This document shows, piece after piece, positions 15,148 through 30,143 of a stretch of DNA of 32,000 bases. Source of the stretch: Promethearchaeota archaeon. GTDB lineage: Archaea; Asgardarchaeota; Lokiarchaeia; Sigyniarchaeales; SOKP01. The translations under genes were made by a program, and so were the position numbers. Within the stretch, counting starts at the first letter, position 1. Every line of letters starts with the position of its first letter. The DNA lies in the NCBI GenBank assembly GCA_030606485.1, contig JAUWGH010000004.1, positions 297,392-329,391 on the forward strand, in the 5' to 3' direction. The notes beneath the pieces were generated by a model. That model saw only the letters and a list, made by a program, of their open reading frames with translations, ran no database searches and had not been told where the DNA came from.

Positions 15148-16593
15148 TTATGTGATTGAAACCTCTCCCTCTTCTTCAATGATTTCACTCTTTTCCTGTT
15201 CTGTAGAGACTAGATAATCTCCAACAGTAGCTTCAATTTCTTTTATTTCTTTTTCTTCCTTTAATTGACTAATAAGGGCTCGCTTTTTAACATAAGATAT
15301 TATTTGAGCACTTAGAGGGAAAAGTAATATAATTGGCAACATTACAACAAGTATTATTTCCGGTGAGAACATTGCAACACTTCCTGATATTGCCTCCGGT
15401 AAATTCAAAACTGAATTAATTATCCAAGAAGTATGGAGAATAATAAAACCAATAAAGATTAATGCAATTACTCTAATAAAAAAACTGGTGAGAGTTGAAA
15501 CAATGAGTTTAGAAGGTCTTGGTGCGGAACTTGTAGCTGTGAGTGTATCTCTTGCTTCTGAATCTTCTACAAACAATCTTTCTATATAACTCCCTAATCG
15601 CCTTGTATCATGAGCAGCAGAAATCAGTTTCTTTTCCTCTTCTTCTAATTTCTTTTTTAATATCATCTCCTTAATATACGAGAATTTTTGTTCCTTTTTT
15701 CCTAAGAACTTAGAAATTTTTGCCTCCTTTTCAATTCCCAATTCTTCCTTTTTCTTTTTACTTTCTTCTTTAATTTGTTCAATATTTGTTGTAATCTCCA
15801 AGGCTTCTTTTTTTAATACATCTAATTGAGATTCTAACCTTTCAGATCTTTCTAAAGAGGGCATTGATATTAAATTTATATAATTTATTTGAAAGGATAG
15901 ATCTAGATAAATATAAAGTGCAAGTGCCAATTGAAAAATAGAACTTAAAATAAAAGATATAAAGTCATTAACAGGTCTCTCAAGAATAGATGAAAAGAGA
16001 GGATTTGGAAGATCATCCAAATATTCTATACTAATATTAAATAAATTAAACGCATTTCTTAATCCTTCAAAGAATAGTGGGATTATAATCATTCCTACAA
16101 GGCAACCAACTACCCAAAAATTATATTTTGGATTTGTTTGAAGTGTGGATCTGATAAAATTAATAATTAAAAGCAAAAATAAGATTTGGAATGATACATT
16201 ATAAATATCATCCGTTATTAATTCAATTTGATTTAATAAACGACTTGGAATCTGGCCTAAGGATTCTATTGGTCCTTCTGGAAATGCAAACCATGAGTTT
16301 AAAAGACCTTTAAATAAATTATCAAGAAAATTACGCATAAAAGAGGGATCGAAATAGCTATGCCATAAAAACAAGAAAATTACCATCATAGATAATCCTA
16401 TTGCGACTAAATAGAGCAATCCAAAAATTAAATAGCTAACAATATTCTTTAAAGAAGTTATTACATTTATTACTGCAGCAAAGTCAATTAAACTCTGATC
16501 AAAAATCGTATTAAAAATTGCTAAAATCCAAAAAAATACTAAAATATTTGCAACTTTTAATGTTGTTAGATACCATCTTACCATTTTTATCAC
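15148..16593 (-). CDS. Polytopic membrane protein with central K/E-rich coiled-coil segment and acidic C-terminus, unknown family; last gene of the MoxR operon
   Basis: 481-aa ORF. Several hydrophobic helices fill the N-terminal ~230 aa. A charged heptad-like stretch follows (SERLESQLDVLKKEALEITTNIEQIKEESKKKKEE...LEEEEKK), then two more hydrophobic helices and an acidic tail. It starts at GTG 16593 or ATG 16584, 27 nt after the DUF58 stop. Confidence 0.7.
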   Translation of the reverse strand: MIKMVRWYLTTLKVANILVFFWILAIFNTIFDQSLIDFAAVINVITSLKNIVSYLIFGLLYLVAIGLSMMVIFLFLWHSYFDPSFMRNFLDNLFKGLLNSWFAFPEGPIESLGQIPSRLLNQIELITDDIYNVSFQILFLLLIINFIRSTLQTNPKYNFWVVGCLVGMIIIPLFFEGLRNAFNLFNISIEYLDDLPNPLFSSILERPVNDFISFILSSIFQLALALYIYLDLSFQINYINLISMPSLERSERLESQLDVLKKEALEITTNIEQIKEESKKKKEELGIEKEAKISKFLGKKEQKFSYIKEMILKKKLEEEEKKLISAAHDTRRLGSYIERLFVEDSEARDTLTATSSAPRPSKLIVSTLTSFFIRVIALIFIGFIILHTSWIINSVLNLPEAISGSVAMFSPEIILVVMLPIILLFPLSAQIISYVKKRALISQLKEEKEIKEIEATVGDYLVSTEQEKSEIIEEEGEVSIT

Positions 16594-16620: not shown

Positions 16621-17925
16621 TCAATATGCTTTTCCCTTCTTTTTGACTTCTAAGTATTGGGCTAAGATCTGAGACATCATATCATCTGGACCCACACTAA
16701 TAATTGGTACCCCTAATGTTCTAGCACTATGTCTTATCTTTAAAACTTGTTCCATCATTTCTTCTGATATTGCTTCAGCTAGCGCCTTATCACTTGGAGA
16801 TAAATCAACCTCGTGAATTTCAAACCAAGGACTGAATGGACTTATGACGACTAGAGAATGCTTCCACATTACAATTTTTTTAATTCCCTTAATAATATCA
16901 TCAGAAGTTTGCTCTAAATCTGTAATTAAAAACACTAAACTCCTTTTTTGAAATTGTTTATTAATAAAATCCATTGCTTCTTCTAATTTAGTTTTACCAG
17001 ATGGTTTTACTTTTGCGATAAAATCAAGCACTTGATAGAAATGATTGCTCCCACTATTGGGTTCTTTAAAATGATAATTTTTCTTATCTGAAAATAAGAA
17101 AACCCCTACTGAATCTCTTCTCGTAAGTGAAATCTTTGTTAATAACATTGTAGCTCTAATGGCATATTCGAATTTTGTATTTTCAATCGATCCACCTGCC
17201 ATAGATTCTCCACAATCAACCATAATCAGGACTGTAATGTCTCTCTCTGATTCATATTCTTTAACTATGAGTTTCTGATGACGAACACTTGCTTTCCAAT
17301 CTATTAATCTAAATTGGTCTCCAAAAGCATATTTTCTCAATCCAAAGAATTCAGAGCCCAAACCTTTCATCTTTGATCTTTGAATACCATAGTTTAAACT
17401 GAGAGATCTTTTTGAACCAAGAATTTCAATTCGTTTAATATCTTCATAAGGAGGATAAATTAAAATTTTCGTGACTGATTTTGGAACGATTCTTTCTTCA
17501 GAATTAAAACCTAATCTATCTTTTACGATGACGGATAATGGCCCAAATGGATATTCACCTCGTACTCTTGGTTGTAATACGTAGGAAAATTTTATTGTTT
17601 CTTTTGGATCAATTCTTGTTAAAATATGATTTTCTCCTAAAACCAATCTAAAAAGTGTAGGGTTGTAATAATCTCTCACTTCGATAAATTCAAATTTATT
17701 TTTTCCCAAATTCTCTAATATGACTTTTACATGGACAAAATCGTCTTTAAATACCTTATTTTTCTCTAATTCCCTCGTAACTTTGAGATCTTCAATATTT
17801 AATCCTAAATGAAACGATGGCAGGCTGATAATAGTACTAAATAGAAGTATAATTGCAAGAAATATTAAAAAAAAATTGACAAAGGCAAACCCTGCCATTA
17901 AAAAAAATGCAGAGAGCAGTATCAA
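16621..17925 (-). CDS. DUF58 family protein (vWA-like partner of MoxR ATPases)
   Basis: The hallmark DQFRLIDWKASVRHQKLIVKEYESERD (IDWKASVR at nt 17281-17304) is followed by VLIMVDCGESM, a degenerate MIDAS-like start of a vWA fold, and there are N-terminal TM helices. The start is uncertain: TTG at 17925 in the ORF track, first ATG at 17898, and the frame stays open further upstream into the moxR 3' end. Confidence 0.85.
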   Translation of the reverse strand: MILLSAFFLMAGFAFVNFFLIFLAIILLFSTIISLPSFHLGLNIEDLKVTRELEKNKVFKDDFVHVKVILENLGKNKFEFIEVRDYYNPTLFRLVLGENHILTRIDPKETIKFSYVLQPRVRGEYPFGPLSVIVKDRLGFNSEERIVPKSVTKILIYPPYEDIKRIEILGSKRSLSLNYGIQRSKMKGLGSEFFGLRKYAFGDQFRLIDWKASVRHQKLIVKEYESERDITVLIMVDCGESMAGGSIENTKFEYAIRATMLLTKISLTRRDSVGVFLFSDKKNYHFKEPNSGSNHFYQVLDFIAKVKPSGKTKLEEAMDFINKQFQKRSLVFLITDLEQTSDDIIKGIKKIVMWKHSLVVISPFSPWFEIHEVDLSPSDKALAEAISEEMMEQVLKIRHSARTLGVPIISVGPDDMMSQILAQYLEVKKKGKAY

Positions 17926-17972: not shown

Positions 17973-18953
17973 TTAGATAGGAACTGGAAGATCTTCTATA
18001 ATTCTCTTAATAACTGTACTAGAATTAAGACCTTCTAATTCTGCTTCTGGTTTTAATAAAATTCGATGGTTTAATACTGATATACAAAGTGATTTTACGT
18101 CATCAGGAGTTACATAATTCCGTCCTAGAATTGCTGCTCTTGCCTTACCACATTTCATTAACGCCAAACTTGCTCTAGGTCCAGCTCCAAGAGCAATTTG
18201 TGGGTGTTGCCTAGATTTGACTATAATATCTCTGATATATTTTAAAATTCTATCATCGATATATACCATATTTACCAAGTTTTGAATTTGAATTATTTCT
18301 TCTGAATTTGTTATATTTTCAACTTCACTTATATCTCCAGATAATTGTCGGCGAATAATCTCAACCTCATCATCTATATCCGGATAATCAAGCCAAAGTT
18401 TAAAAATGAATCGGTCAACTTGTGCCTCTGGAAGGGGATATGTACCTTCCATTTCTATTGGATTTTCTGTTGCAATGACCATAAATGGTTTTTCTAATAT
18501 CCTAGTTTCATTTTCAATTGTTACTTGCCGTTCAGCCATCGCTTCTAGAAGAGCTGCTTGAGTTTTAGGGGCAGTTCTATTAATTTCATCCGCGAGAACA
18601 ATATTAGCGAAGATTGGTCCTGGCATTAATACAAAACTACCTTCACTTTGATCAAAAATCTTGGAGCCAGTGATGTCTGCAGGTAATAAATCTGGTGTAA
18701 ATTGTACTCTACTAAATGACATACCAAGAACTTTTGCAAAAGTCTTAGCCATGACTGTTTTTCCTAAACCTGGCACGCCTTCTAACAGAACATGACCGTT
18801 TACTAGAAGAGCGATAAAAAGGTGCTGCATGATTTCTCCATATCCTACAATAACGCATGCTACTTCTGAAAGAACATTTTGTGCAACATTTCTTACTGGA
18901 GATAGGTCAAATTCTTGTCCAAATCGGTCTTTTACTTTTTTTGGTGCTTCCAT
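17973..18953 (-). CDS. moxR: MoxR-family AAA+ ATPase
   Basis: Walker A GVPGLGKT (nt 18756-18779) and Walker B IVLADEINR are present, along with TQAALLEAMAERQVT, ATENPIEMEGTYPLPEAQVDRF and GAGPRAS. The 326-aa length is typical. Confidence 0.95.
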   Translation of the reverse strand: MEAPKKVKDRFGQEFDLSPVRNVAQNVLSEVACVIVGYGEIMQHLFIALLVNGHVLLEGVPGLGKTVMAKTFAKVLGMSFSRVQFTPDLLPADITGSKIFDQSEGSFVLMPGPIFANIVLADEINRTAPKTQAALLEAMAERQVTIENETRILEKPFMVIATENPIEMEGTYPLPEAQVDRFIFKLWLDYPDIDDEVEIIRRQLSGDISEVENITNSEEIIQIQNLVNMVYIDDRILKYIRDIIVKSRQHPQIALGAGPRASLALMKCGKARAAILGRNYVTPDDVKSLCISVLNHRILLKPEAELEGLNSSTVIKRIIEDLPVPI

Positions 18954-19017: not shown

Positions 19018-20691
19018 TTAAATTTGATTCATTGCCCATTCCATTTCGAAATATAACTTTTGGAAATCTTCAGGATCTTTAATTTTCTTTTTATTATTTT
19101 TAACGCCAATTATTGCTTCAAAAAAATTATTTAATCTTCTTAAATTTGATTTTGAAATATTGGTTTTTCCTTTTACCATAATAATTAAATTAATTATATT
19201 TTCTACAGTAAAGGCTCGACCTTTTAATAAAGAATTGATTTTTCTCTCAAGCCTTCTGAATAGTAAAGTTAATGCTTGATTAAATTTACGATTATCTTTA
19301 TACCAATTAATTTTTCTTGCAAAGAAGGAAGAGGTCCGGAATTTCAATGTTTCTTCTTTCTTTTCCTCTTTTTTTTCTATCTCTTTTTCTTCTTCTTTAG
19401 CTTCTTTAGGTAAATATCTTTTAAGGGTATAAATTCCCAGTAATGGATAAATAAAGGCAGTTAGAGGATTTGTTGATAAATGAATTACATAACCAAGATA
19501 AAGGCCAAAAACGCCTGCAGATGATACATCTGGCAAATTTTCAGGTCTTATATGAGCCTCATCAAAAGCGATTATATAATTTGAAGGATTTCCAAAGGTA
19601 AGCCAGTTCAAAATATTTAATGCAAATTGTTTATTATCATAATTATCATTATTTATTAGTTCATTATCAAATAAACTGGCATCTGCAGAACAGAATATAC
19701 GGGAATGGCTTCCAACATCAGTTGCCATGAATACTGCTTGCGGGTACCCTCCTAATGGTATTGTAAAATCGCCTTTAATACCTAAAAATTCACCCATACC
19801 TCCAAATAAGGTATATCCATCATTTTCACTAGTATATATTCCATCTCCGTTTCTATCTACAAAGCTATATTGACTTGATTGGCCAATTAAACTCCATCCA
19901 AACATTTCAATAAATGGGCCACCTAAAGCACAAGATGATCTACTTAAAATTACATTGGAAATTCCTTGGGTTGTTGGGTGAAATTGGAAATTTGTTATAA
20001 TAGGGAATGTTGGATTTTTGTCATATGAAGCATTATCACGCAAAATTCCTTCAGGAAATATAGTTACGGGGAATGATCCAGCACTTGTAATTGCAATTTG
20101 ATATAATAATTCTGATGTACTTCCATGATCATGACATACAAATAGGGAGTTATTTCCTTTCATAAAATCAATAAAAAACGGAATTTCATATAATGGATTA
20201 TAAAAACGATTTGCTCCCATTATAATTAAAACTACAGGTTTATCAAGTCTCTGAGTTGCACTTAAGTCAGTTTGAATTGAAAAAACATTGTAACCATTCG
20301 CTTCGAGTGTATCTTTCAATTCAGAACATCCATTCCATTGAGAATTATGTATAGAAAAATTATGATCATTTTTTCCTTGATCTATTATAGAAGATAATAG
20401 AGGTATGAAAGATAAAACGAAAATTATAAGGAATAAACTCTGTTTCCAACTAATCTTCACTTTTTTCTCTGATTTTGCCTGTCGGGTTTTTAATTTTCTA
20501 GAAGCCATAATGAAAATTATAAGTCTAATTCCAATGATTCCGGCACCTAAGAAACATACCATTGGAAGGAAACTAACAAAATAGGGAGCATTCGTAACAG
20601 TAGACAATTGAATTCCCACTATTATTAAATACACAGTAAAAAAAATATAAACTATGTATTTTGAAACTACAACACTTTTTCTTTCTGGCAT
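19018..20691 (-). CDS. Membrane protein with DUF4350-like extracytoplasmic domain
   Basis: There are three N-terminal hydrophobic helices. The segment WNGCSELKDTLEANGYNVFSI...KPVVLIIMGANRFYNPLYEIPFFIDFMKGNNSLFVCHDHG matches by eye the DUF4350 pattern (G..al..lL...G..v, then tlvv..p, then wv..GG.l). A late TM helix, a KEE-rich linker and a helical cytoplasmic tail follow. Confidence 0.55.
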   Translation of the reverse strand: MPERKSVVVSKYIVYIFFTVYLIIVGIQLSTVTNAPYFVSFLPMVCFLGAGIIGIRLIIFIMASRKLKTRQAKSEKKVKISWKQSLFLIIFVLSFIPLLSSIIDQGKNDHNFSIHNSQWNGCSELKDTLEANGYNVFSIQTDLSATQRLDKPVVLIIMGANRFYNPLYEIPFFIDFMKGNNSLFVCHDHGSTSELLYQIAITSAGSFPVTIFPEGILRDNASYDKNPTFPIITNFQFHPTTQGISNVILSRSSCALGGPFIEMFGWSLIGQSSQYSFVDRNGDGIYTSENDGYTLFGGMGEFLGIKGDFTIPLGGYPQAVFMATDVGSHSRIFCSADASLFDNELINNDNYDNKQFALNILNWLTFGNPSNYIIAFDEAHIRPENLPDVSSAGVFGLYLGYVIHLSTNPLTAFIYPLLGIYTLKRYLPKEAKEEEKEIEKKEEKKEETLKFRTSSFFARKINWYKDNRKFNQALTLLFRRLERKINSLLKGRAFTVENIINLIIMVKGKTNISKSNLRRLNNFFEAIIGVKNNKKKIKDPEDFQKLYFEMEWAMNQI

Positions 20692-20723: not shown

Positions 20724-21089
20724 TTAAAATCTGAATTGTTTTCCAGTTATTTCTGTATAGACTTTTGAAAACAAACTTAATGTGGCTTTGAAATCAGTTT
20801 CAGTAGGTTCAACTCCTCCGTATATCGTTTCCTCAATTTTTTGAATGAATGGATAAATAATTTCTGGATTTTGGCCTAATTTTTTTACGCAAGTTATTGC
20901 AAATTCACGAATAGTTTCGAAAAATTTTCTTGGTTGGCCAAATTTTTGCCGGATTAAATCAGTATAAATTAAATAAATGTATGCAATAGATTCTTTCATA
21001 CGATTTGTTTGATTTAATACTTGTATATTCCTTTTTTTACTTTCTATATCAAAAATGGGTTGTGATTTCTTTTTTTTACTTTTTGCCAT
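20724..21089 (-). CDS. Small soluble DUF4129-like protein, paralog of the C-terminal domain of the upstream 523-aa protein
   Basis: 121 aa with a Lys-rich N-terminus (MAKSKKKKSQ). It aligns by eye with aa ~410-523 of the neighbouring protein. Shared residues: ES..Y.....L...K.G......ETI...AI.CV...G..P..IYPFI.KIE..IYG.......DF......F...Y...TG. Confidence 0.6.
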   Translation of the reverse strand: MAKSKKKKSQPIFDIESKKRNIQVLNQTNRMKESIAYIYLIYTDLIRQKFGQPRKFFETIREFAITCVKKLGQNPEIIYPFIQKIEETIYGGVEPTETDFKATLSLFSKVYTEITGKQFRF

Positions 21090-21147: not shown

Positions 21148-22719
21148 TTATTTCAATGTAATTTTATATCCGGTAAAATCATAAAATAATGTAATAAACT
21201 GAGAGAAAATTTCTTCAAAATCTTCTTCACTAATTTTACCTCCACTTCCATATAAAATTTGTTCAATTTTTTTTATGAAAGGATATATTTTTGAAGGCGG
21301 AAGCCCCATATCTCTAACACATTTAATGGCATAATCATTAATCGTTTCATTAGACTTCTTTATTACTCCATATTTAGCTTCACTAAGTTGTAAAAAGACA
21401 TAAAATAGATAAACAACTGATTCTTCACGCCTATCGGTATCTTTAAGTATAGTTATGTTTTTTAACTTATTTTCGAGAGGGATTTGGACAACTTTAGGCT
21501 CAGCAGCTTGTCTCTTACTAAAAAAATAAACGGCAGTAATAATTCCCGCTATTATTACAATTAGAATAATAATTGTAACTGGATTAATTAATAATCCGCC
21601 CGGGGGAGGTGGTTCAGCACCAGCAGTGACATTAACAATGATTGATGATTTTACTGGGAGATGGAGGAGATTATCAGTTGAAACAGTTAATGTACCATTT
21701 CCTGATGGCATAAAATTAAATGAAAAACCACCACTACTATTTGTTGTTAAATTTTTAATTAAAACTCCACCAAATTCAATATTAATTGATCTGTTAAATA
21801 TTTTAAAGGAGGAATTTGTGGATGATGTTAATTCTCCTCGAACAGTTATATTCTGCACTTCGGTGATGTTCTTAGGTATATCCCATTTGCATGTGAAGTT
21901 TGAAAATACCAATAAATTATTAATTATTAAACTTGATTCATAAATGTTTGGAGAACCGGTGAAATTAAGAACCAGCTCAATTGAACTCCAACTAGTAGAA
22001 GGGAGAGAAATTTGTCCAGAAAAAAGTCCATTTAAATCGGTTGTTATAGTGCCTTGGTGTGAGTCTGAACCATTGATTCTCCAATATGCATCTACATCTG
22101 TTGTAGAAATTCCAGAATTATTATCAAAATATAAATTTCCTTTAATTTTATAATTTTCACCATTAACTTTAGGATTATAGTTTGTCTCTTTATAGAACAT
22201 TTTTGAGTCTGCTGAAACATAAATAAGGTAATAGTGATTGTATTTCGTATTTTTAGGATCTGTTACATTTATATTGATTATATGTGATTGATAGATATTA
22301 ACCCACATAGGTATTTTTGTTGTTATTGTAAAATTTCCAGTTGAGTCTGTTACATCTTTTGCACCAATACTTTCTCCAAAATCTATTCCATCGAAAATTA
22401 ATGTAACATTTACATTGGGTTGACCTCCACCTAAAAAAGGGTTATATACAATTCCCTTTACTGTTATTGATTCATAATGCTTAAAATGTGAATTATTTAC
22501 TTCAGTTGGATTTGTTAAATTTAAAAAATAACTATATACTATACTTGGTCTTGGGCTTAGACCTTTTTCGATTTTATTTTCATTTATTAAAGTTTTATTT
22601 GAATAAAATGAAACATTTAACCAAATTATGAAAAATGTAATTATTATTATGAGAAGAAGTTTCATATTTTTTAAGTTTTTGTAGGGATACAATTTATTTT
22701 TCACCTTAATTACACCCAT
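21148..22719 (-). CDS. Type-I-like membrane protein: signal/anchor helix, Ig-like/CarboxypepD_reg-like beta repeats, TM helix, cytoplasmic DUF4129-like domain
   Basis: The start ATG overlaps the stop of the 1471-aa gene (ATGGGTGTAA, 10-nt overlap). The N-terminus is hydrophobic (MKLLLIIIITFFIIWL). Beta-rich repeats carry many N-x-S/T sequons (ITVKGIVYNP...NVNVTLIFDG...TDSTGNFTITT). PPPPGG is followed by the TM helix LLINPVTIIILIVIIAGIITAVYFF and then a ~115-aa helical domain (nt ~21151-21492). Confidence 0.7.
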   Translation of the reverse strand: MGVIKVKNKLYPYKNLKNMKLLLIIIITFFIIWLNVSFYSNKTLINENKIEKGLSPRPSIVYSYFLNLTNPTEVNNSHFKHYESITVKGIVYNPFLGGGQPNVNVTLIFDGIDFGESIGAKDVTDSTGNFTITTKIPMWVNIYQSHIININVTDPKNTKYNHYYLIYVSADSKMFYKETNYNPKVNGENYKIKGNLYFDNNSGISTTDVDAYWRINGSDSHQGTITTDLNGLFSGQISLPSTSWSSIELVLNFTGSPNIYESSLIINNLLVFSNFTCKWDIPKNITEVQNITVRGELTSSTNSSFKIFNRSINIEFGGVLIKNLTTNSSGGFSFNFMPSGNGTLTVSTDNLLHLPVKSSIIVNVTAGAEPPPPGGLLINPVTIIILIVIIAGIITAVYFFSKRQAAEPKVVQIPLENKLKNITILKDTDRREESVVYLFYVFLQLSEAKYGVIKKSNETINDYAIKCVRDMGLPPSKIYPFIKKIEQILYGSGGKISEEDFEEIFSQFITLFYDFTGYKITLK

Positions 22720-25700
22720 GGCAACCTAATTCTGAATTCTAATATAAAATTATCTCCATAATAAGTAGCAAATACTCTATCAGCAAGATCCCATCCCGAT
22801 TGTATTGTAATATATCCCCAAAATTCACCTCCGACTAAAGTAGTATAAGATATTTCTGCATATACATATCCTTGGGAATCTTCAAGAGTCATATTTACAT
22901 CATATCCAACCATAGCAATTCCATTATCCCAAGTTAAATTTCCGTGAATTGTAATTATTTCACCCTCACCAAAATAATCTTCAAAATAAGAATCATAGTA
23001 TCCATCAATTATATTGGTTCCAGCGGAAACATTAAGGACTTTTGGCATGCTACTATTTGAGATCATATAATCATTGAGGTTTATGCTACAAAATGGATCT
23101 GGATGATCAATAATTGTTCCATTAAAATCAACCCGTATATCATATTTACCATATGGTATCGATATATTGACTTTGAATATAAACATGTAATCCCAATTAG
23201 TATTCTGAGATATAATCATAGAAGGATAATAACCAGCTTGGAAGATAAGATAATCGGAGTAATCATTTGAATTATTAAATAATTTAATTGTAACTTCCAC
23301 TTGCTTCATTTTTATATTATTATATGTATCCTTAACAGACCCAGATACATTTATCCAATCAATGTTTCTAATAACAACATCATTCTTAACAACAGAAATT
23401 TCTACATTTTTACTTCCATTCAATATAATAAAAGTATAATTTAGGAAATCATAACCATCCAATTGATATAATACTTTGATTTTATGAGGACCTACGACCC
23501 ATGATTCATTTATGTTAGATATAAACTCTATGTATCCATCTTCATCTGTTTGGCCAGAATTTAATAACCTATTTTCATAAACATCGTATAGAAATACATC
23601 ACCATATTGCTCAGGATTCTCGCCACACATTACTTTTACTGTGAAATTAACATTATCATTACGGTTAAAGGATTGAGGGGGATAATTATTATCATAAGTA
23701 GGTAATGCTTCATTTCCATCTATCCAAAGAGCAATTGAGATACTATAAGGATCTTTTATTTTTAAATCCATTATAGTAGATGTTGATGTATTAATATAGG
23801 TAAGGAAGAAATTATGCGGAAAATCATTGTCTTGATTTAAATAATAAAAGGTTCCATTAAAATCAATTCTTAAGGAATAATTTCCAGCCGGAATAGTATT
23901 ACTTACATCAAAATTTAGATCAAAGGTACCATCTGCACCACAATAATAAGGATTAGTGCTAGGATATATAGGAATGAGTTGTGTATTGAATTTATTATTA
24001 TTTTTAATTAAATTTACAGTAATTTCTGCATATTTTATAGGTCTATTATAAAGATCATCAACAATTGTACCTTTTATATTAAACGCAGTGTCTATTGAAC
24101 CACTTCGATTAATAATATTTGGAACAGGCTTTGGTGGATTTATTTCTATTCTGATGGCTTCATATATAATGAAATAAGAGTAATTCTTTAAACTGCCCAA
24201 TTCCCATTCCGCATAAACCAAATGTGGTCCTGCCAATAAATCACCGGCGTTTAAATAATATGTAATATTTGCACATCCATTCTCATCTGTAGTTTTTACA
24301 CCTATTTCGGAATTATTTGTTTCATCGAAAAATCTGACTAATTCTCCCTCTAAAGGACCGCTTCCACCTTGAAGATTAATTTTTAAATTTAATTCTTGAG
24401 TTCTTTTTACAATTGGTTGTTCATACTCAGAAGTTGAAGTTCCATTTATCCAGAAATCAAGGATTTGAATATCTGGAGCTTCAATTTTTAAATCCATCAC
24501 TGTAGATGTAGATGTGTTTATATAGGGAAGATTGAAAAGATATGGATAATCTTGACTTAAGTAATCAAATATTCCGTTAAAATCGATTCTTATAGAATAA
24601 TTTCCAGGAAGAATGTTATCATCAACATTAAAATTTAGATCAAACGATCCATATTCACCACAATCAAAAAGAATAGGATATGGAGGTTGTAGATAGCTAG
24701 AATAATCTACTAAATTCTTAAATAATCTTACAGAAACTTGTGCATATTTTATGGGATTATTGTTTGTGTCATCTAGAATAGAACCTTTTATATTAAATGT
24801 GTAATCACCCACATCAATTCGATTAATAATATTAGGAACCGGTCTTGGTGGATTAAGATCTATTCTAACATTATCATCCAATATAAAATATGAATAATTC
24901 TCTTGACTACCACATTGTGCATAAATTAAATGAGGTCCTGCTATTTTATCATAATCTAAATTATAATTAAAGAAGATCTCTCCATTAAAGTTAGTATCTT
25001 CAGTATGTATTGGTGGTCCTAAAGGATCTTCTGTAATATCGTATAAATTAATTGTTCTCCCTTGTAAAGGCCCACCACTTAATGAATATAATACTACTCT
25101 CAATTCAACCGAAGTGTTTCTTTTTACTCTAGGATTAGAAAAATCATCAGAGGGATACCCATTAATAAATAAATCTAAAAAGATAGCATCGGGATTTATA
25201 ATTTGAACAGAGATTTCTGAACTAGAATCACTTAATTGAGGATATGAATAAAATTGAGAAAAAACTCCAGAAAGAAATCCGATTTGAAATGATCCGTTAA
25301 AATCAACTCTAATACCATATGTTCCGCTCACTACATGATCATTCACATATACAATAATGTTATAATCTCCATCATTATCAGTTAATTCAGAATCGGGAGT
25401 GAATGCTAGTGAAATCTTATTATTAGATGAATCTAAGAGTATAAATTCCACCTCTCCATTAGAAACTCCCTTTCCGTTTAAGGGATCAAAAAGTACTCCC
25501 ATTATTCTAGTATTACTGCTAACGGTTTTATCAATAATAGTGGGATCAACATCAGTAAGATTTACTTCTATGGGTGCATTTAGAAAATAAATAGTGTAAT
25601 TAATAGTAAATCCCGTAGATGCTTGAATTAGATGGGGTCCTGCAACAGTCTGATCGTTAATATCAACTATTATGGAGCATTTACCATCATTATTTGTTAT

Positions 25701-27125
25701 TCCTTCACCTAAATTTGGATTATTTTCCGTTGAATCCTCAAAAATAATAGTTATTCCCTCTTGAGGGGTTCCGTCTGAAAAAAGTTCTGCAATAATTTCA
25801 ACTGAATCCCCGCGAATTACGGGAGTAGTTGTATTAGTATAAACATTTAATTCCATTTCTTCAAAAGTTAAGGGATTTCCTCCTCCAAAGCTTTCAAATA
25901 AAACATCCATTTCAGTCCAGACACCAGATCCATCAACAGCTAATGGAACATAAATTTCTGACCATGAATAAAGATTTAACCTTCTAATTATCGAATAGTT
26001 TTTATCTTCTTGAGCATTATAATGTTCGCTCGGATAGATAGGGAATTTTCGAGAATTGAAACCATCAACATATCGACTTGCAATTCCAAACGCACGAGCA
26101 AATGCTGTAAAAGTTGCAGCAAAATCAGAGAAAATTCCAGATTGTTCACCACAAAACCATTCAACTACGTCTTGTCCATGAGCGGGGCGATTATAAGGAG
26201 GAAGGACATCAATATCAAAATTTTCTTGCAAATAATTTCTAATTTTATTAGCTTTTACATATGCATTATCTGTAGAATTAATAATTGCATCTAATGCATC
26301 ATAATGGCTTTTAAAATTTGGATTATTTAAGATATATCCTGGTATGCCTCCTGGGTCTGGTAATTGATAATATTGATCTTTTATCGCATTAGGAGTATAA
26401 GTTTCCATAACAGCGGAAGTATTTAATTCAGTTGGACTCATAACGGATTCGCTAAATAAATCATATGTAAGATTACAAGAATATGCTTCATCAAAAGAAA
26501 AGCTCATTGATGCTACATTGAAAATATCTTTATATAATAGAAGAGAACTTTCATCAAATTCAGGTGACCATGGATCTACCCATGAATGCTCCCACGGATG
26601 ATCCATAATGTAAGGTGTAGGGAATAAGGCGGGAATTACCAATGAATTTTCTCCTGCTGTTGCATCAATTGGATATTTTATTCTTATTATATCTCTATCT
26701 GAATAGTCATTATTATAATCATGCCAGTAAGTAAATTCTGTTGGGCTTACCCCAGATACTGATTGGGACCAACTCCCATCGTTATTATATTCATCCGCTA
26801 CAGAGAATTTCCATAGCCAAGATTCATCAAAAGGATCATAATCTTCAATATAAAAAACTGCTTCTCCAGCGTGTTCTAGGAGGTCATCATAATCGAGAAG
26901 ATCCGTCAAATTAAACATATCAAATGCAATATCGAATAATTCTGCCTCTTCTTCTGGTGCATTTGCTAATTCATCTGATGGAGTTGTTCTTATACCGAAT
27001 ATTAGCCCAAATAAAGCTATAGAGCCCAAATATAGCCCAAAGAGTAAGATAGCTATTAATATTATTGAAATAGCTTGCTTTATTGTATTTCCTTCAGTAA
27101 TAAGCTCCTTTCTTCTCTCAGACAT
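22710..27125 (-). CDS. Giant TM-anchored surface protein with transglutaminase-like core (catalytic Cys/His apparently substituted) and four tandem two-domain beta modules
   Basis: 4416-nt ORF starting at ATG, with an N-terminal TM helix (AISIILIAILLFGLYLGSIALFGLIFGI). The transglutaminase-core-like segment reads WFCGEQSGIFSDFAATFTAFARAFGIASRYVDGF ... LYSWSEIYVP ... GVWTEMD. The rest consists of repeated modules with recurring AGPH[LK][IV] and [IV]R[IV]DFNG motifs and many N-x-S/T sequons. Confidence 0.8.
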   Translation of the reverse strand: MSERRKELITEGNTIKQAISIILIAILLFGLYLGSIALFGLIFGIRTTPSDELANAPEEEAELFDIAFDMFNLTDLLDYDDLLEHAGEAVFYIEDYDPFDESWLWKFSVADEYNNDGSWSQSVSGVSPTEFTYWHDYNNDYSDRDIIRIKYPIDATAGENSLVIPALFPTPYIMDHPWEHSWVDPWSPEFDESSLLLYKDIFNVASMSFSFDEAYSCNLTYDLFSESVMSPTELNTSAVMETYTPNAIKDQYYQLPDPGGIPGYILNNPNFKSHYDALDAIINSTDNAYVKANKIRNYLQENFDIDVLPPYNRPAHGQDVVEWFCGEQSGIFSDFAATFTAFARAFGIASRYVDGFNSRKFPIYPSEHYNAQEDKNYSIIRRLNLYSWSEIYVPLAVDGSGVWTEMDVLFESFGGGNPLTFEEMELNVYTNTTTPVIRGDSVEIIAELFSDGTPQEGITIIFEDSTENNPNLGEGITNNDGKCSIIVDINDQTVAGPHLIQASTGFTINYTIYFLNAPIEVNLTDVDPTIIDKTVSSNTRIMGVLFDPLNGKGVSNGEVEFILLDSSNNKISLAFTPDSELTDNDGDYNIIVYVNDHVVSGTYGIRVDFNGSFQIGFLSGVFSQFYSYPQLSDSSSEISVQIINPDAIFLDLFINGYPSDDFSNPRVKRNTSVELRVVLYSLSGGPLQGRTINLYDITEDPLGPPIHTEDTNFNGEIFFNYNLDYDKIAGPHLIYAQCGSQENYSYFILDDNVRIDLNPPRPVPNIINRIDVGDYTFNIKGSILDDTNNNPIKYAQVSVRLFKNLVDYSSYLQPPYPILFDCGEYGSFDLNFNVDDNILPGNYSIRIDFNGIFDYLSQDYPYLFNLPYINTSTSTVMDLKIEAPDIQILDFWINGTSTSEYEQPIVKRTQELNLKINLQGGSGPLEGELVRFFDETNNSEIGVKTTDENGCANITYYLNAGDLLAGPHLVYAEWELGSLKNYSYFIIYEAIRIEINPPKPVPNIINRSGSIDTAFNIKGTIVDDLYNRPIKYAEITVNLIKNNNKFNTQLIPIYPSTNPYYCGADGTFDLNFDVSNTIPAGNYSLRIDFNGTFYYLNQDNDFPHNFFLTYINTSTSTIMDLKIKDPYSISIALWIDGNEALPTYDNNYPPQSFNRNDNVNFTVKVMCGENPEQYGDVFLYDVYENRLLNSGQTDEDGYIEFISNINESWVVGPHKIKVLYQLDGYDFLNYTFIILNGSKNVEISVVKNDVVIRNIDWINVSGSVKDTYNNIKMKQVEVTIKLFNNSNDYSDYLIFQAGYYPSMIISQNTNWDYMFIFKVNISIPYGKYDIRVDFNGTIIDHPDPFCSINLNDYMISNSSMPKVLNVSAGTNIIDGYYDSYFEDYFGEGEIITIHGNLTWDNGIAMVGYDVNMTLEDSQGYVYAEISYTTLVGGEFWGYITIQSGWDLADRVFATYYGDNFILEFRIRLPWV
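23020..25870 (-). repeat. Intragenic tandem repeat: four ~236-248-aa (708-744-nt) two-domain modules inside the 1471-aa CDS
   Basis: Equivalent anchor residues fall at aa 522 (nt 25560-25562, IEVNLTDVDPTIIDK), aa 758 (24852-24854, IDLNPPRPVPNIINR), aa 996 (24138-24140, IEINPPKPVPNIINR) and aa 1244 (23394-23396, VEISVVKNDVVIRN). Units 2 and 3 are also recognisably similar at the DNA level, for example ttaataatattaggaaccggtcttggtggatt versus ttaataatatttggaacaggctttggtggatt. Confidence 0.85.
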
Positions 27126-27356: not shown

Positions 27357-28238
27357 TTAAAATTCATAGCCACATTTGGTGCATATATTTTTCTTTGCGT
27401 AAATTGGTTTAGGAATGTAGGACACTATTTTGGTTTTGTCTTCAACCTCTTTAATCGCAGTAGAGCCACAATTAGGGCAAACTCTTCTTATTCCAGTACC
27501 TAATCCAATTGCGGGAGATATTATTGGTTCAGTTGAAGGCATTGAGGGTGTCGGTTCAGTTGAAGGTATTGAGGGTGTTGGTGCTGGTGTTGGCATAGTA
27601 GGTTGTTGGCTAAAAGGATAAGGACTTGTAGAAGCAAGTGTAGAAGGCATTACAGGTTTTGGCTCTTTTAATTCTTCAATTCTTTTATTTTTTGCTGAAA
27701 TTTCTTGGGTTAATTCATTTACTTTTGCTTGTATTGGACCAATTTGTTGTTTTAATTGAACATTTTCAGCCGAAAAGTAACGTGCTTGAGTTTGTGCTTC
27801 TGCTAATTGTGTTTGTAGTTGTTGAATATGTGAATTGAGTTGATTTACCTGATTTTTATGGACTTCCATCGATTGCTGGAGAGTAGCAAGTTGTTGGTTT
27901 AGTTGATTAATTTGAGCATCCTTTTGAGTTGCAATATTTTGTAATTCATTAATTTGATTATTTTTATTTTGCAGTTCGGTCTCTAACTGGTTAATTTGCC
28001 TATTCAAATCTTGTACTTGAGTTTGAATTTGACCTATATCTACTGAAGATATTTGGGTGGATGGCAATGGTGGTTGTGGCGCTGGAGGGGGAGAAGGTGT
28101 TTGTACTGGGGGAGGAATCGGTGGACTTATCGGAGGCGGGATTTGAGTAGGGGCTGGTGGTGGAGGTGTGTATGGAGGTGCTCCTAAAGGTTTTTTTTCC
28201 TCTTCTTCTTCTTTTTCAGGATCACGTTCATCTGACAT
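27357..28238 (-). CDS. Proline-rich / Q,N-rich coiled-coil / C-terminal zinc-ribbon protein, unknown family
   Basis: 293-aa ATG-started ORF. An acidic N-terminus is followed by polyproline tracts (PPYTPPPPAPTQIPPPISPPIPPPVQTPSPPPAPQPPLP). A ~130-aa heptad-like Q/N/L-rich segment follows (QDLNRQINQLETELQNKNNQINELQN...), then a P/T/S-rich linker. The C-terminus has CPNCG (about nt 27425-27490) and CTKCG (27360-27383). Confidence 0.75.
   Translation of the reverse strand: MSDERDPEKEEEEEKKPLGAPPYTPPPPAPTQIPPPISPPIPPPVQTPSPPPAPQPPLPSTQISSVDIGQIQTQVQDLNRQINQLETELQNKNNQINELQNIATQKDAQINQLNQQLATLQQSMEVHKNQVNQLNSHIQQLQTQLAEAQTQARYFSAENVQLKQQIGPIQAKVNELTQEISAKNKRIEELKEPKPVMPSTLASTSPYPFSQQPTMPTPAPTPSIPSTEPTPSMPSTEPIISPAIGLGTGIRRVCPNCGSTAIKEVEDKTKIVSYIPKPIYAKKNICTKCGYEF
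27526..27579 (-). repeat. 27-nt tandem duplication (2 copies, 2 mismatches) encoding PTPS[I/M]PSTE
   Basis: On the plus strand, ggttcagttgaaggcattgagggtgtc (27526-27552) is followed directly by ggttcagttgaaggtattgagggtgtt (27553-27579). It is in frame within the P/T/S-rich linker of the 293-aa protein. Confidence 0.9.
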
Positions 28239-28379
28239 TTTAAATCATTTAAATTATTTTAAAATAATTCTCTAAGTAAAAAATAGATAGACATTTAAAT
28301 TTATATATTTATAGGTCGCTTAAAAAAAATTTAATGTATAGAGAAAAAAAAATTTAAAAAATTTTTTAGATTAAAATGA

Positions 28380-29465
28380 TTAAAAACAATTCCAATATTC
28401 TGATAAGTTATTCTTGATTTGTTTGATAAGTCTTTCCTGGGTATATTCAAGTATTTTTTCATCAGATTTTCTTTCATCTTCGGAAATTAAATCAGTTTCA
28501 CTGTTTAGAACTTTTAATACATTATATATTGCTTGAGCCTGTTTATCTAATTCATATCCTCCTTCTAAAGTAATTAAGATTTTTCCATTGGCATAATCAT
28601 CAGCTAGTGATTTAATCAGTTTTGTAAGATTTGCTGGCCCTTGGATTGTCCAGCCCATTCTTGTCAGGAGGTCGGTATGATGAGTATCAAAACCAGCAGA
28701 GATTAGGATAAATTCTGGTTTAAATTCATTTGTTATTGGAATTGCTATTTCTTTATACAACAATTGAATTATATCATCACCAGAGGAAGGAGCCATAGGG
28801 AAATTGATTATATGGCCCTCTCCCTTTCCTGAGCCAATTTCATTAGTAAATCCGGTTCCAGGATAGAGAGTTCGTCCATCTTGATGAGAACTGAAAAAAA
28901 GTAATTGTCCATTTTCTGAGCCATCATAAAATATGTCTTGGGTTCCGTTTCCATGGTGGCAATCCCAATCGAAGATTGCAACTTTTTTTACATTTTTTTC
29001 TCTAAAGAGATATTCCGCAGCGATTGCAATATTATTAAAAATACAAAAACCTGCGCATTTATATTTATTGGAATGATGCCCAGGTGGTCTAACAAGACCA
29101 AAAGCGCTACTAATTTCTCCCTTTAATATTTTATCAATACCAGTTAAATTTCCCCCAACTGAATATAAAGAAGATTCAAAAGTATCTCCAGAAACAACGG
29201 TGTCCATATCGATATTTTTTAAACTCTCTGTTTTTGCTGCTAAATCACTTAGTTCCTTAATTTGCTCAATTAGCCTCTCCGAGTGAACATATTTTATCTG
29301 ATCAATGGTTGCCTTGCGGGGTTTAATAACTGGAAATTCTTTAGAGTTCCAAATACCCTTTTCCTCTAAAAATTTTTTCGCTACAATAAGTCTTTTTGGC
29401 GTCTCTACATGGACTCCTACTTCATGTTTTAAATAAATCTCGTCATAAATTAATCCAACTGGCAT
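28380..29465 (-). CDS. Histone deacetylase-family (class II HDAC / AcuC / acetylpolyamine amidohydrolase-like) zinc deacetylase
   Basis: Motifs VRPPGHHS, FDWDCHHGNGTQDIF, SAGFDTHHTD and LEGGY (catalytic Tyr retained) are present, in a 361-aa protein. Confidence 0.9.
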   Translation of the reverse strand: MPVGLIYDEIYLKHEVGVHVETPKRLIVAKKFLEEKGIWNSKEFPVIKPRKATIDQIKYVHSERLIEQIKELSDLAAKTESLKNIDMDTVVSGDTFESSLYSVGGNLTGIDKILKGEISSAFGLVRPPGHHSNKYKCAGFCIFNNIAIAAEYLFREKNVKKVAIFDWDCHHGNGTQDIFYDGSENGQLLFFSSHQDGRTLYPGTGFTNEIGSGKGEGHIINFPMAPSSGDDIIQLLYKEIAIPITNEFKPEFILISAGFDTHHTDLLTRMGWTIQGPANLTKLIKSLADDYANGKILITLEGGYELDKQAQAIYNVLKVLNSETDLISEDERKSDEKILEYTQERLIKQIKNNLSEYWNCF

Positions 29466-29621
29466 TTTTAAAACCTTTCAATCATTAGATGGTTTTCATT
29501 TAATTGAATATAAATAATTTCTGAAGGTTAAAAAGATTTGGGGATAATTTTGGATTAATTCTTTTTAGGTATTGACTTAAAGAAAAGTATTAAAACACAA
29601 ACTAATTTAATATTTACAAAG

Positions 29622-30143
29622 ATGAGTGATATTCAAGTGTTTAAATTTAAGTTTGTTATAATTGGTGAAAACGCTGTAGGAAAGACATCTTTAGCGAGAT
29701 CTTTTGTATCTAAGCAATTTGCTACGGATTATAAACCGACAATTGGCAGTAATATCTTTATGCATAATGTTTCTTTATCAGATAATCTTAATGTCTCAGT
29801 TGCTTTATTTGATATTGCTGGTCAAGAGAAGTGGGCAATGATGAGGCATATTTATTATGAAGGAGCTCAAGCAGCTTTTTTAGTTGGGGATGTAACAAGA
29901 GATCGTTCTTTCGATGAGTTAGCAAATTTTTGGTATCCAGATTTTATAAAATTCTGTGAGAAAAAGCCAACAATCTTACTTGCAAATAAGAGTGATTTAG
30001 AATCAAAAACGGATAAGAAGAAAATTGAAGAAGCGGCAAAAAAAATAGGAGCTATAGATATTGTTTATACTTCTGCAAAAACGGGAGAAAATTGTGATGA
30101 TGCGTTAAAAAAGCTCGTATTATATTGTATGAATCAAATTTAA
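29622..30143 (+). CDS. Ras-superfamily small GTPase, Rab/Ras-like
   Basis: All five G motifs are present: G1 GENAVGKTS, G2 YKPTIG, G3 DIAGQE, G4 NKSD and G5 TSAK. The protein is 173 aa with no C-terminal CAAX/CC prenylation motif (it ends YCMNQI). Confidence 0.9.
   Translation: MSDIQVFKFKFVIIGENAVGKTSLARSFVSKQFATDYKPTIGSNIFMHNVSLSDNLNVSVALFDIAGQEKWAMMRHIYYEGAQAAFLVGDVTRDRSFDELANFWYPDFIKFCEKKPTILLANKSDLESKTDKKKIEEAAKKIGAIDIVYTSAKTGENCDDALKKLVLYCMNQI

Follow-up and report, generated by a model that had tools for sequence, protein, structure and literature searches.

Is a transglutaminase-like (TGL) domain still an enzyme when phenylalanine and tyrosine stand where its relatives have the catalytic cysteine and histidine, and if it is not, what might it be kept for? 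The question is raised by P0001, a predicted giant surface protein of 1471 amino acids resembling TgpA, whose gene lies on the reverse strand of a 32,000-nucleotide stretch (hereafter the window; G+C content about 30%) of contig JAUWGH010000004.1 from a Promethearchaeota archaeon. The original prediction, an alignment made by eye, placed Phe332 and Tyr386 in the columns of the nucleophilic Cys and of the His of the transglutaminase core, with the third residue, Asp407, retained, and proposed that the domain is a pseudo-enzyme and not the outcome of random divergence. All three assignments were reproduced by alignment programs, and the codons (TTC, TAT and GAT, respectively) are correct. A Cys-His-Asp/Glu triad is not found in P0001, where the corresponding residues are Phe332, Tyr386 and Asp407. 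We consider it likely that P0001 contains a TgpA-type TGL ectodomain that has become a pseudo-enzyme without catalytic function, and its transglutaminase activity is predicted to be absent.

This reading depends on the register of the triad columns, on which several comparisons bear. The Pfam profile for the transglutaminase core, PF01841, matches P0001 with a score of 51.9 bits, well over its gathering threshold of 23, and with 57.4 bits in a six-frame search of the genome. When a family profile built from an alignment of 58 homologs (alignment A1) was compared with the sequences in the PDB, the best match was to Pseudomonas aeruginosa TgpA (6g49, E 1e-3), and the family motif 'G-l-w-S-d-F-A' fell on 'SGFCAHYA' of TgpA and on 'GRCGEWAN' of mouse PNGase (2f4m); the aromatic column lies over the nucleophilic Cys of both enzymes and is therefore the nucleophile column. 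The profile was needed for this comparison: a single-sequence phmmer search of the TGL domain against the PDB returned a chance match only, and a search of NCBIfam gave nothing useful. Alignment by hhalign of A1 with L001, one of the canonical paralogs that this genome encodes ('GDCSEF ... HAWLEY'), gave the same pairing with the helix ungapped. BLASTP against P0178, an ortholog from a record labelled Freyarchaeota (E 4e-21 over residues 62-526), paired Phe332 with Cys ('QGICVHFAS'), Cys325 with Leu, Tyr386 with His ('INAHAWAEVW') and Asp407 with Asp. Finally, an exhaustive HMMER search with the family hidden Markov model yielded 6770 matches at E <= 1e-3, and when the 150 best representatives were put through hmmalign the distant members showed L-G-C...R...R...H-W-E...D/E where P0001 has C-G-F...R...R...Y-W-E...D. 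At the level of sequence, then, four independent alignments concur on Phe332, Tyr386 and Asp407 as the triad positions. The spacing from the Cys column to a conserved Arg is likewise +12 in P0001 and in both canonical paralogs, L001 and L002. The upstream Cys325 (in WFCGEQ) had been judged to lie out of register with the catalytic motif, and that judgement holds: its column is occupied by Leu in the canonical orthologs, and in roughly 10% of the family itself. No alignment of real strength, by profile or pairwise, assigns the catalytic columns to Cys325 and a His.

The substitutions are not peculiar to this genome. The 58 full-length database homologs of P0001 (1180-1530 amino acids), of which the named close ones all belong to Asgard archaea (the record labels being Promethearchaeota, Promethearchaeia or Lokiarchaeota), have Trp in the Cys column in 37 cases, Phe in 13, Tyr in seven and Ser in one. 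The His column is Tyr in 57 and Phe in one; the Asp column is Asp in 55, Glu in two and Asn in one; and the upstream Cys325 column is Cys in 52 and Leu in six. Much the same states were read from 81 rows made up of 80 GTDB species genomes and the query: W64, Y9, F7 and S1 in the Cys column, Y80 and F1 in the His column, and Asp in 78 of 81 at the third position. By the genetic code Trp, Phe, Tyr and Ser are all a single nucleotide away from Cys codons, and Tyr is a single nucleotide away from His. Gly330, Arg344, Arg351, Asn384, Trp388 and Glu390 are invariant across the 58 homologs. The TGL domain of this alignment has no invariant residue of the types Cys, His, Ser or Lys at any position. 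The comparison with orthologs that had been proposed as a check thus shows F/Y-type substitutions common to the relatives, and P0001 is no outlier among them.

The domain has also been held under purifying constraint. The ratio of nonsynonymous to synonymous substitution rates (dN/dS), calculated by the method of Nei and Gojobori against two informative orthologs (L011 and L012), is 0.22-0.24 in the TGL region, about 0.35 in the immunoglobulin-like (Ig-like) repeats and 0.33-0.49 in the N-terminal domain, so that the inactive TGL domain is the most constrained part of P0001. With Tyr386 near-invariant, residue 332 nearly always aromatic and a dN/dS of about 0.22, the proposal of a pseudo-enzyme as opposed to random divergence is supported. 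The synonymous rate itself differs sharply along the gene: the Ig-like repeats (22713-25805) have a dS of 0.98 in the comparison with L011 and the TGL region (25806-26438) one of 0.14, and against L010 the corresponding values are 0.27 and 0.03. This contrast inside a single gene suggests a mosaic evolution of the surface-exposed stalk, by recombination or repeat exchange, beside a membrane-proximal domain that is nearly fixed. The same genome contains two further TGL genes in which Cys and His are in place: L001 encodes a protein of 443 residues, hydrophobic at both ends and complete in its 'GDCSEF / HAWLEY / SDP' motifs, and L002 a soluble protein of 226 residues with 'GFC' and 'FHGYSE'.

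Structure prediction and fold comparison, likewise proposed as a check, were carried out on residues 45-450. The AlphaFold2 model, based on an alignment of 57 sequences, has a mean predicted local distance difference test score (pLDDT) of 81 and a predicted template modelling score of 0.82, with pLDDT values of 90-94 in the blocks around the three triad positions. In the numbering of the model, residue 332 opens a long helix (288-301), residue 386 lies within a strand (341-350) and residue 407 follows a strand (357-362); the triad positions thus occupy the canonical helix and strand elements, and the predicted topology of the core is that of a canonical papain/transglutaminase fold. The best Foldseek matches in the PDB were to the periplasmic domain of TgpA (6g4h, E 6e-11; 6g49, E 1.3e-10), with a template modelling score of 0.63 when normalised by target length. 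This match spans about 350 aligned columns, and therefore both the N-terminal beta domain and the core resemble TgpA. A putative cysteine protease from Cytophaga (3isr) and then 3kd4 came next, followed by weaker matches to TG2, FXIII, PNGase and XPC/Rad4.

The distribution of active and inactive forms was surveyed in 400 genomes of the same GTDB phylum, the triad columns being read in 20 further genomes and in representative hits. In the GTDB family to which the window belongs, 105 of 134 genomes have one high-scoring copy, mostly at 190-345 bits, and scores in other families are lower. Given in the order Cys column, His column, Asp column, the states are C/H/D in records labelled Jordarchaeales and Freyarchaeota (families f20 and f21; one f20 member is C/Y/D), where the same operon is present and a DUF4129 domain is fused to the TGL protein; S/H/D, again with the same operon, in families f11, f26 and f27 (for example P0135); and D/H/E in f30. 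The proteins of about 2000 residues in f31 (for example P0172) have Pro in the first column, Thr or Met in the second and varied residues in the third, with the operon intact and DUF4129 fused. Elsewhere in the order to which the window belongs, families have Pro in the first column with Asp or Tyr in the second, or Tyr in both (P0184, 2361 residues), and in P0094 and P0184 the gene layout is split. In a tree of 70 domain sequences (IQ-TREE), all sequences from the Lokiarchaeia order form a single clade (36 rows, support 87 by the Shimodaira-Hasegawa-like approximate likelihood ratio test), none of which has Cys together with His, and the C/H/D, S/H/D and D/H/E forms fall in the other clade together with the separately inactivated f31 group (support 99). 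Because the dead Loki-order clade stands apart from the dead f31 group, the triad was lost at least twice, with a further, separate change of His to Tyr in f20; the tree came from a short search without bootstraps and was rooted at the midpoint, and this count is a minimum estimate and not a dated history. A connection between loss of the triad and the splitting off of DUF4129 was considered and rejected: the 2042-residue P0172 is dead and keeps DUF4129 fused, and the split is therefore a trait of the Lokiarchaeia order and not a correlate of inactivation.

Active and inactive cores also occur side by side within single proteins. Certain orthologs from Jordarchaeales and Freyarchaeota have tandem TGL cores (P0115, residues 243-403 and 584-739; P0095, residues 242-402 and 596-741; see also locus L008), the first with Cys and the second with Pro in the Cys column (P/H/D or P/Y/D), and these are natural active-plus-dead pairs. 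Other representative hits (P0092-P0133 among them) are proteins of 1500-3250 residues with three to seven TGL cores each, and the cores of one protein differ in the nucleophile column, where Cys, Ser, Ala, Gly and His occur together.

Against this background, other accounts of Phe332 and Tyr386 can be weighed. TTC and TAT are each one nucleotide from TGC (Cys) and CAT (His), as would be expected if a sequencing or assembly error, or a decaying pseudogene, lay behind the substitutions; but 58 homologs from the database and 80 independent species genomes show the same states, the 4.4-kb reading frame is intact with a dN/dS of 0.22, and the operon is both intact and syntenic. The probability of such an origin is negligible, and we regard sequencing error and pseudogenisation as excluded. 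It is very improbable, too, that enzymatic activity has been preserved by means of residues that have moved or been exchanged, whether Cys325 as a migrated nucleophile, Ser/Thr333, or Tyr/Asp/Glu chemistry acting in the hydrolysis of glycans or amides. Cys325 is admittedly 90% conserved, occurs only in the lineage that lacks the canonical Cys and is replaced by Leu in canonical relatives; Asp407, Glu390 and Tyr386 are nearly invariant; and hhalign to the paralog L002 pairs 'WFC' of P0001 with 'GFC', setting Cys325 against the catalytic Cys. That alignment was nevertheless rejected, since it has an E-value of 0.1 and a probability of 0.6%, opens a seven-residue gap inside the helix, and conflicts both with the +12 spacing from Cys to Arg, which favours position 332, and with three stronger alignments. 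Moreover, about 10% of the family have Leu or Ser in place of Cys325, and the active enzymes have a hydrophobic Leu in that column, which suggests a buried core position; residue 333 is Pro, Tyr, Asn or Ile in some members; and no His is conserved anywhere in the domain.

A further alternative accepts that catalysis has been lost and assigns the domain no function of its own, as a mere folding or spacer unit of the stalk protein in which aromatic side chains stabilise the fold by plugging the cleft. Cavity filling would indeed be expected to put aromatic residues at the two former catalytic positions, residue 332 varies between Trp, Phe and Tyr, and no ligand is known. A spacer would hardly be more constrained than the rest of the protein, however, nor would it need the invariant polar residues Asp286, Asp319, Arg344, Arg351, Asn384 and Glu390, and the occurrence of Tyr rather than Phe at position 386 in 57 of 58 members suggests that the hydroxyl group matters. 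This alternative is in our judgement unlikely.

The most likely role of the inactive TGL domain, by analogy with other inactive folds of this type, would be that of a non-covalent binding or scaffold module. In papain-like folds the side chains of the catalytic Cys and His are in contact, and residue 332 and Tyr386 would therefore probably pack together beside Asp407, where they might fill the former cleft or else line it as an aromatic and acidic pocket. Seated at the foot of a long, glycosylated Ig-like stalk, the domain could then serve as a non-covalent binding module, or a structural one, for a glycan or a peptide. Two further products of the operon, the MoxR ATPase and the DUF58 von Willebrand factor A-type (vWA) protein, appear to be intact and would work on the cytoplasmic side, probably by way of a partner protein, now separately encoded, with transmembrane and putative DUF4129 segments. 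Given that the operon has survived at least two losses of the triad, TGL catalysis would be dispensable for the system in these lineages, and the system as it exists in these archaea would need none.

Several points weigh against an inactive binding module. We know of no ligand or binding activity for the TGL domain, nor, even in bacteria, of an established function for MoxR-DUF58-TgpA systems. The conservation of Asp407 and Glu390 leaves a measure of scope for chemistry without a thiol, and Ser/Thr333, adjoining the substituted position, is about 90% conserved. The N-in/C-out topology and the glycosylation of P0001 are, besides, read from sequence only. It is tempting to go further and to suggest that the core function of the MoxR-DUF58-TgpA system is non-catalytic, the triad having been dropped repeatedly in Asgard archaea with every operon gene kept; that the site in Lokiarchaeia is a pocket of aromatic residues (Trp/Tyr) and Asp for a specific glycan or peptide; and that the glycosylated stalk protein is a surface receptor or adhesin, for example in contact between cells or with a syntrophic partner, whose assembly or state is run from the cytoplasm by MoxR and the vWA protein via the split DUF4129. 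Taken as a whole this scenario is speculative, and rather unlikely to be correct.

The features of the gene and its neighbourhood are collected in Table 1. The open reading frame of P0001 (4416 nucleotides) is unbroken. Its single hydrophobic anchor is preceded by a basic RRK and followed by an acidic run, a distribution of charge from which an N-in/C-out topology may be predicted. The beta-rich domain that follows gave no Pfam match. Beyond the TGL region, Pfam matches over residues 450-1210 comprise bMG3 (in four stretches), CarboxypepD_reg, Transthyretin and Big_1, and P0001 as a whole contains 33 N-x-S/T sequons against 17 expected. These features point to a type II-anchored and probably glycosylated ectodomain, with the TGL module close to the membrane and the Ig-like stalk beyond it. 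A multi-helix TgpA_N/DUF3488 membrane domain was not found: P0001 has no match to PF11992 and only one hydrophobic stretch, and a weak TgpA_N match was recorded only for the relative P0094.

Table 1. Positions of the features of P0001, of its operon and of the TGL paralogs (window positions unless a genome and contig are given)
Feature	Position	Strand	Basis
Whole gene, TgpA-like giant surface protein P0001, 1471 residues (predicted)	22710..27125	-	Open reading frame list and translation
Single N-terminal hydrophobic anchor, residues ~12-46	26988..27092	-	Kyte-Doolittle scan; sole stretch >1.6 in P0001
Beta-rich N-terminal domain ahead of the core, residues ~89-229, part of TgpA-like ectodomain	26439..26861	-	AlphaFold2 strands (model positions 45-180); Foldseek alignment to 6g49/6g4h
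Conserved TGL region, residues 230-440 (alignment A1)	25806..26438	-	Homolog alignment; dN/dS
Pfam Transglut_core match, residues 281-407	25905..26285	-	PF01841, profile positions 7-107 of 108
Cys325 (TGT), upstream Cys, non-catalytic, Leu position of canonical relatives	26151..26153	-	Family column and alignments
Phe332 (TTC), catalytic Cys column, N-terminus of long helix	26130..26132	-	Alignments, codon check, AlphaFold2
Tyr386 (TAT), catalytic His column, inside beta-strand	25968..25970	-	Alignments, codon check, AlphaFold2
Asp407 (GAT), third triad residue, kept	25905..25907	-	Alignments, codon check
Array of Ig-like/MG-like/CarboxypepD_reg-like repeats, residues 441-1471, sequon-rich	22713..25805	-	Pfam
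523-residue partner protein, two hydrophobic segments	21148..22719	-	BLASTP, transmembrane scan
121-residue soluble protein, no family match	20724..21089	-	Size 119-126 residues in relatives
557-residue DUF4350-like membrane protein	19018..20691	-	PF14258 E 1.3e-5, below cut-off; orthologous positions carry DUF4350
MoxR AAA+ ATPase, intact Walker A (GVPGLGKT) and Walker B (IVLADE)	17973..18953	-	PF07726 AAA_3, 214 bits
DUF58/vWA protein	16621..17925	-	PF01882, 112 bits, and VWA_2
481-residue polytopic membrane protein, end of operon, no family match	15148..16593	-	Hydropathy; position conserved in relatives
Paralog L001, TGL protein with Cys and His	G000:C1:210432-213848		Full motifs (see text)
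Paralog L002, TGL protein with Cys and His	G000:C9:7534-10878		Motifs (see text)

The P0001 gene is the first of seven co-directional genes. It overlaps the next gene, which starts at 22719, by 10 nucleotides (22710-22719), and this is consistent with translational coupling within the operon. Residues 396-523 of the 523-residue product of that next gene align by BLASTP (E 2e-7) with residues 1103-1232 of P0178, the tail of which is a DUF4129 domain (PF13559, 35.8 bits); from this alignment of its C-terminal 125 or so residues it follows that the transmembrane and DUF4129 module here probably forms a separate gene. No direct Pfam match to DUF4129 was obtained in P0001 or in the 523- and 121-residue products, so that an earlier suggestion of a free DUF4129-like paralog in the 121-residue protein is not backed by Pfam. 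The position and size of that small protein are kept in every relative with the split layout that was examined (L004, L005, L009 and L112). The entire neighbourhood, upstream genes included, recurs in relatives with only about 44% identity in the TGL region. The upstream genes (27357-30143 in the window, 7100-9800 in L004 and L005, 4516-5592 in L007) encode a coiled-coil/zinc-ribbon protein of about 280 residues, a class I/II histone deacetylase-like deacetylase and a Ras/Arf-like small GTPase, and the deacetylase gene also adjoins the operon at the Freyarchaeota locus of P0178.

Operons that combine MoxR, DUF58 and transglutaminase genes abound in bacteria and archaea, and both inactive transglutaminase folds and the association of TgpA with MoxR and DUF58 proteins are already known. 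A search of the literature on Asgard archaea and transglutaminases found no description of the present family. What appears to be undescribed is the replacement of both Cys and His by aromatic residues throughout a family of Asgard TgpA-type ectodomains, maintained by selection, with triad-bearing orthologs in sister lineages. In a whole Asgard family (105 of the 134 species genomes searched) a complete operon has been kept with Cys and His replaced, while sister lineages keep the triad, and this offers a natural comparison of active and dead forms for finding out what the MoxR-DUF58-TgpA system does. The P0001 family, which is conserved and present in a single copy, is in addition a candidate for one of the main surface proteins of Lokiarchaeia, in which the composition of the envelope is poorly known.

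Zhang and Aravind proposed that operons encoding MoxR, vWA and TGL proteins are ATP-dependent degradation systems in which the TGL domain is the peptidase (PMC3495828); in several Asgard lineages the system would persist without that chemistry. Roles as binding or scaffold modules have been described or proposed for the inactive TGL domains of Rad4, Cyk3, CC2D2A, EPB42 and FBXO21 (PMC3495828, PMC10318531). Like EPB42, Rad4/XPC, FBXO21, CC2D2A and Cyk3, P0001 combines a TGL/papain-like fold with a nucleophile that has been lost and a domain that has been retained under selection. It differs from them in having conserved aromatic residues in place of Cys and His alike, and whereas those proteins are eukaryotic, intracellular and without a MoxR operon, P0001 is archaeal, predicted to be extracellular and of the TgpA lineage. 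Closer to hand, P0178 of Freyarchaeota and P0115 of Jordarchaeales share with P0001 an N-terminal anchor, a beta domain, a TGL core (at residues ~240-400 in theirs) and then Ig-like repeats, and their operons likewise encode DUF4350, MoxR and DUF58 proteins and a membrane protein (of about 450 residues in theirs); unlike P0001 they have a complete Cys-His-Asp triad and end in a fused DUF4129 domain. The best match in the PDB both in sequence and, for the whole ectodomain, in structure remains TgpA of Pseudomonas aeruginosa (PA2873; 6g49/6g4h), an enzyme with a conserved triad that acts as a transglutaminase in vitro and without which the cells are not viable (PMC3507681). TgpA is anchored in the membrane with the TGL domain outside it, as is predicted for P0001, and both have genes for a MoxR ATPase and a DUF58 protein as neighbours and a probable link to DUF4129. 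They part company in that the Cys-His-Asp triad of TgpA is Phe-Tyr-Asp in P0001, its six-helix membrane part contrasts with one N-terminal helix in P0001, about 1000 residues of Ig-like repeats are added, and DUF4129 probably resides on a separate gene.

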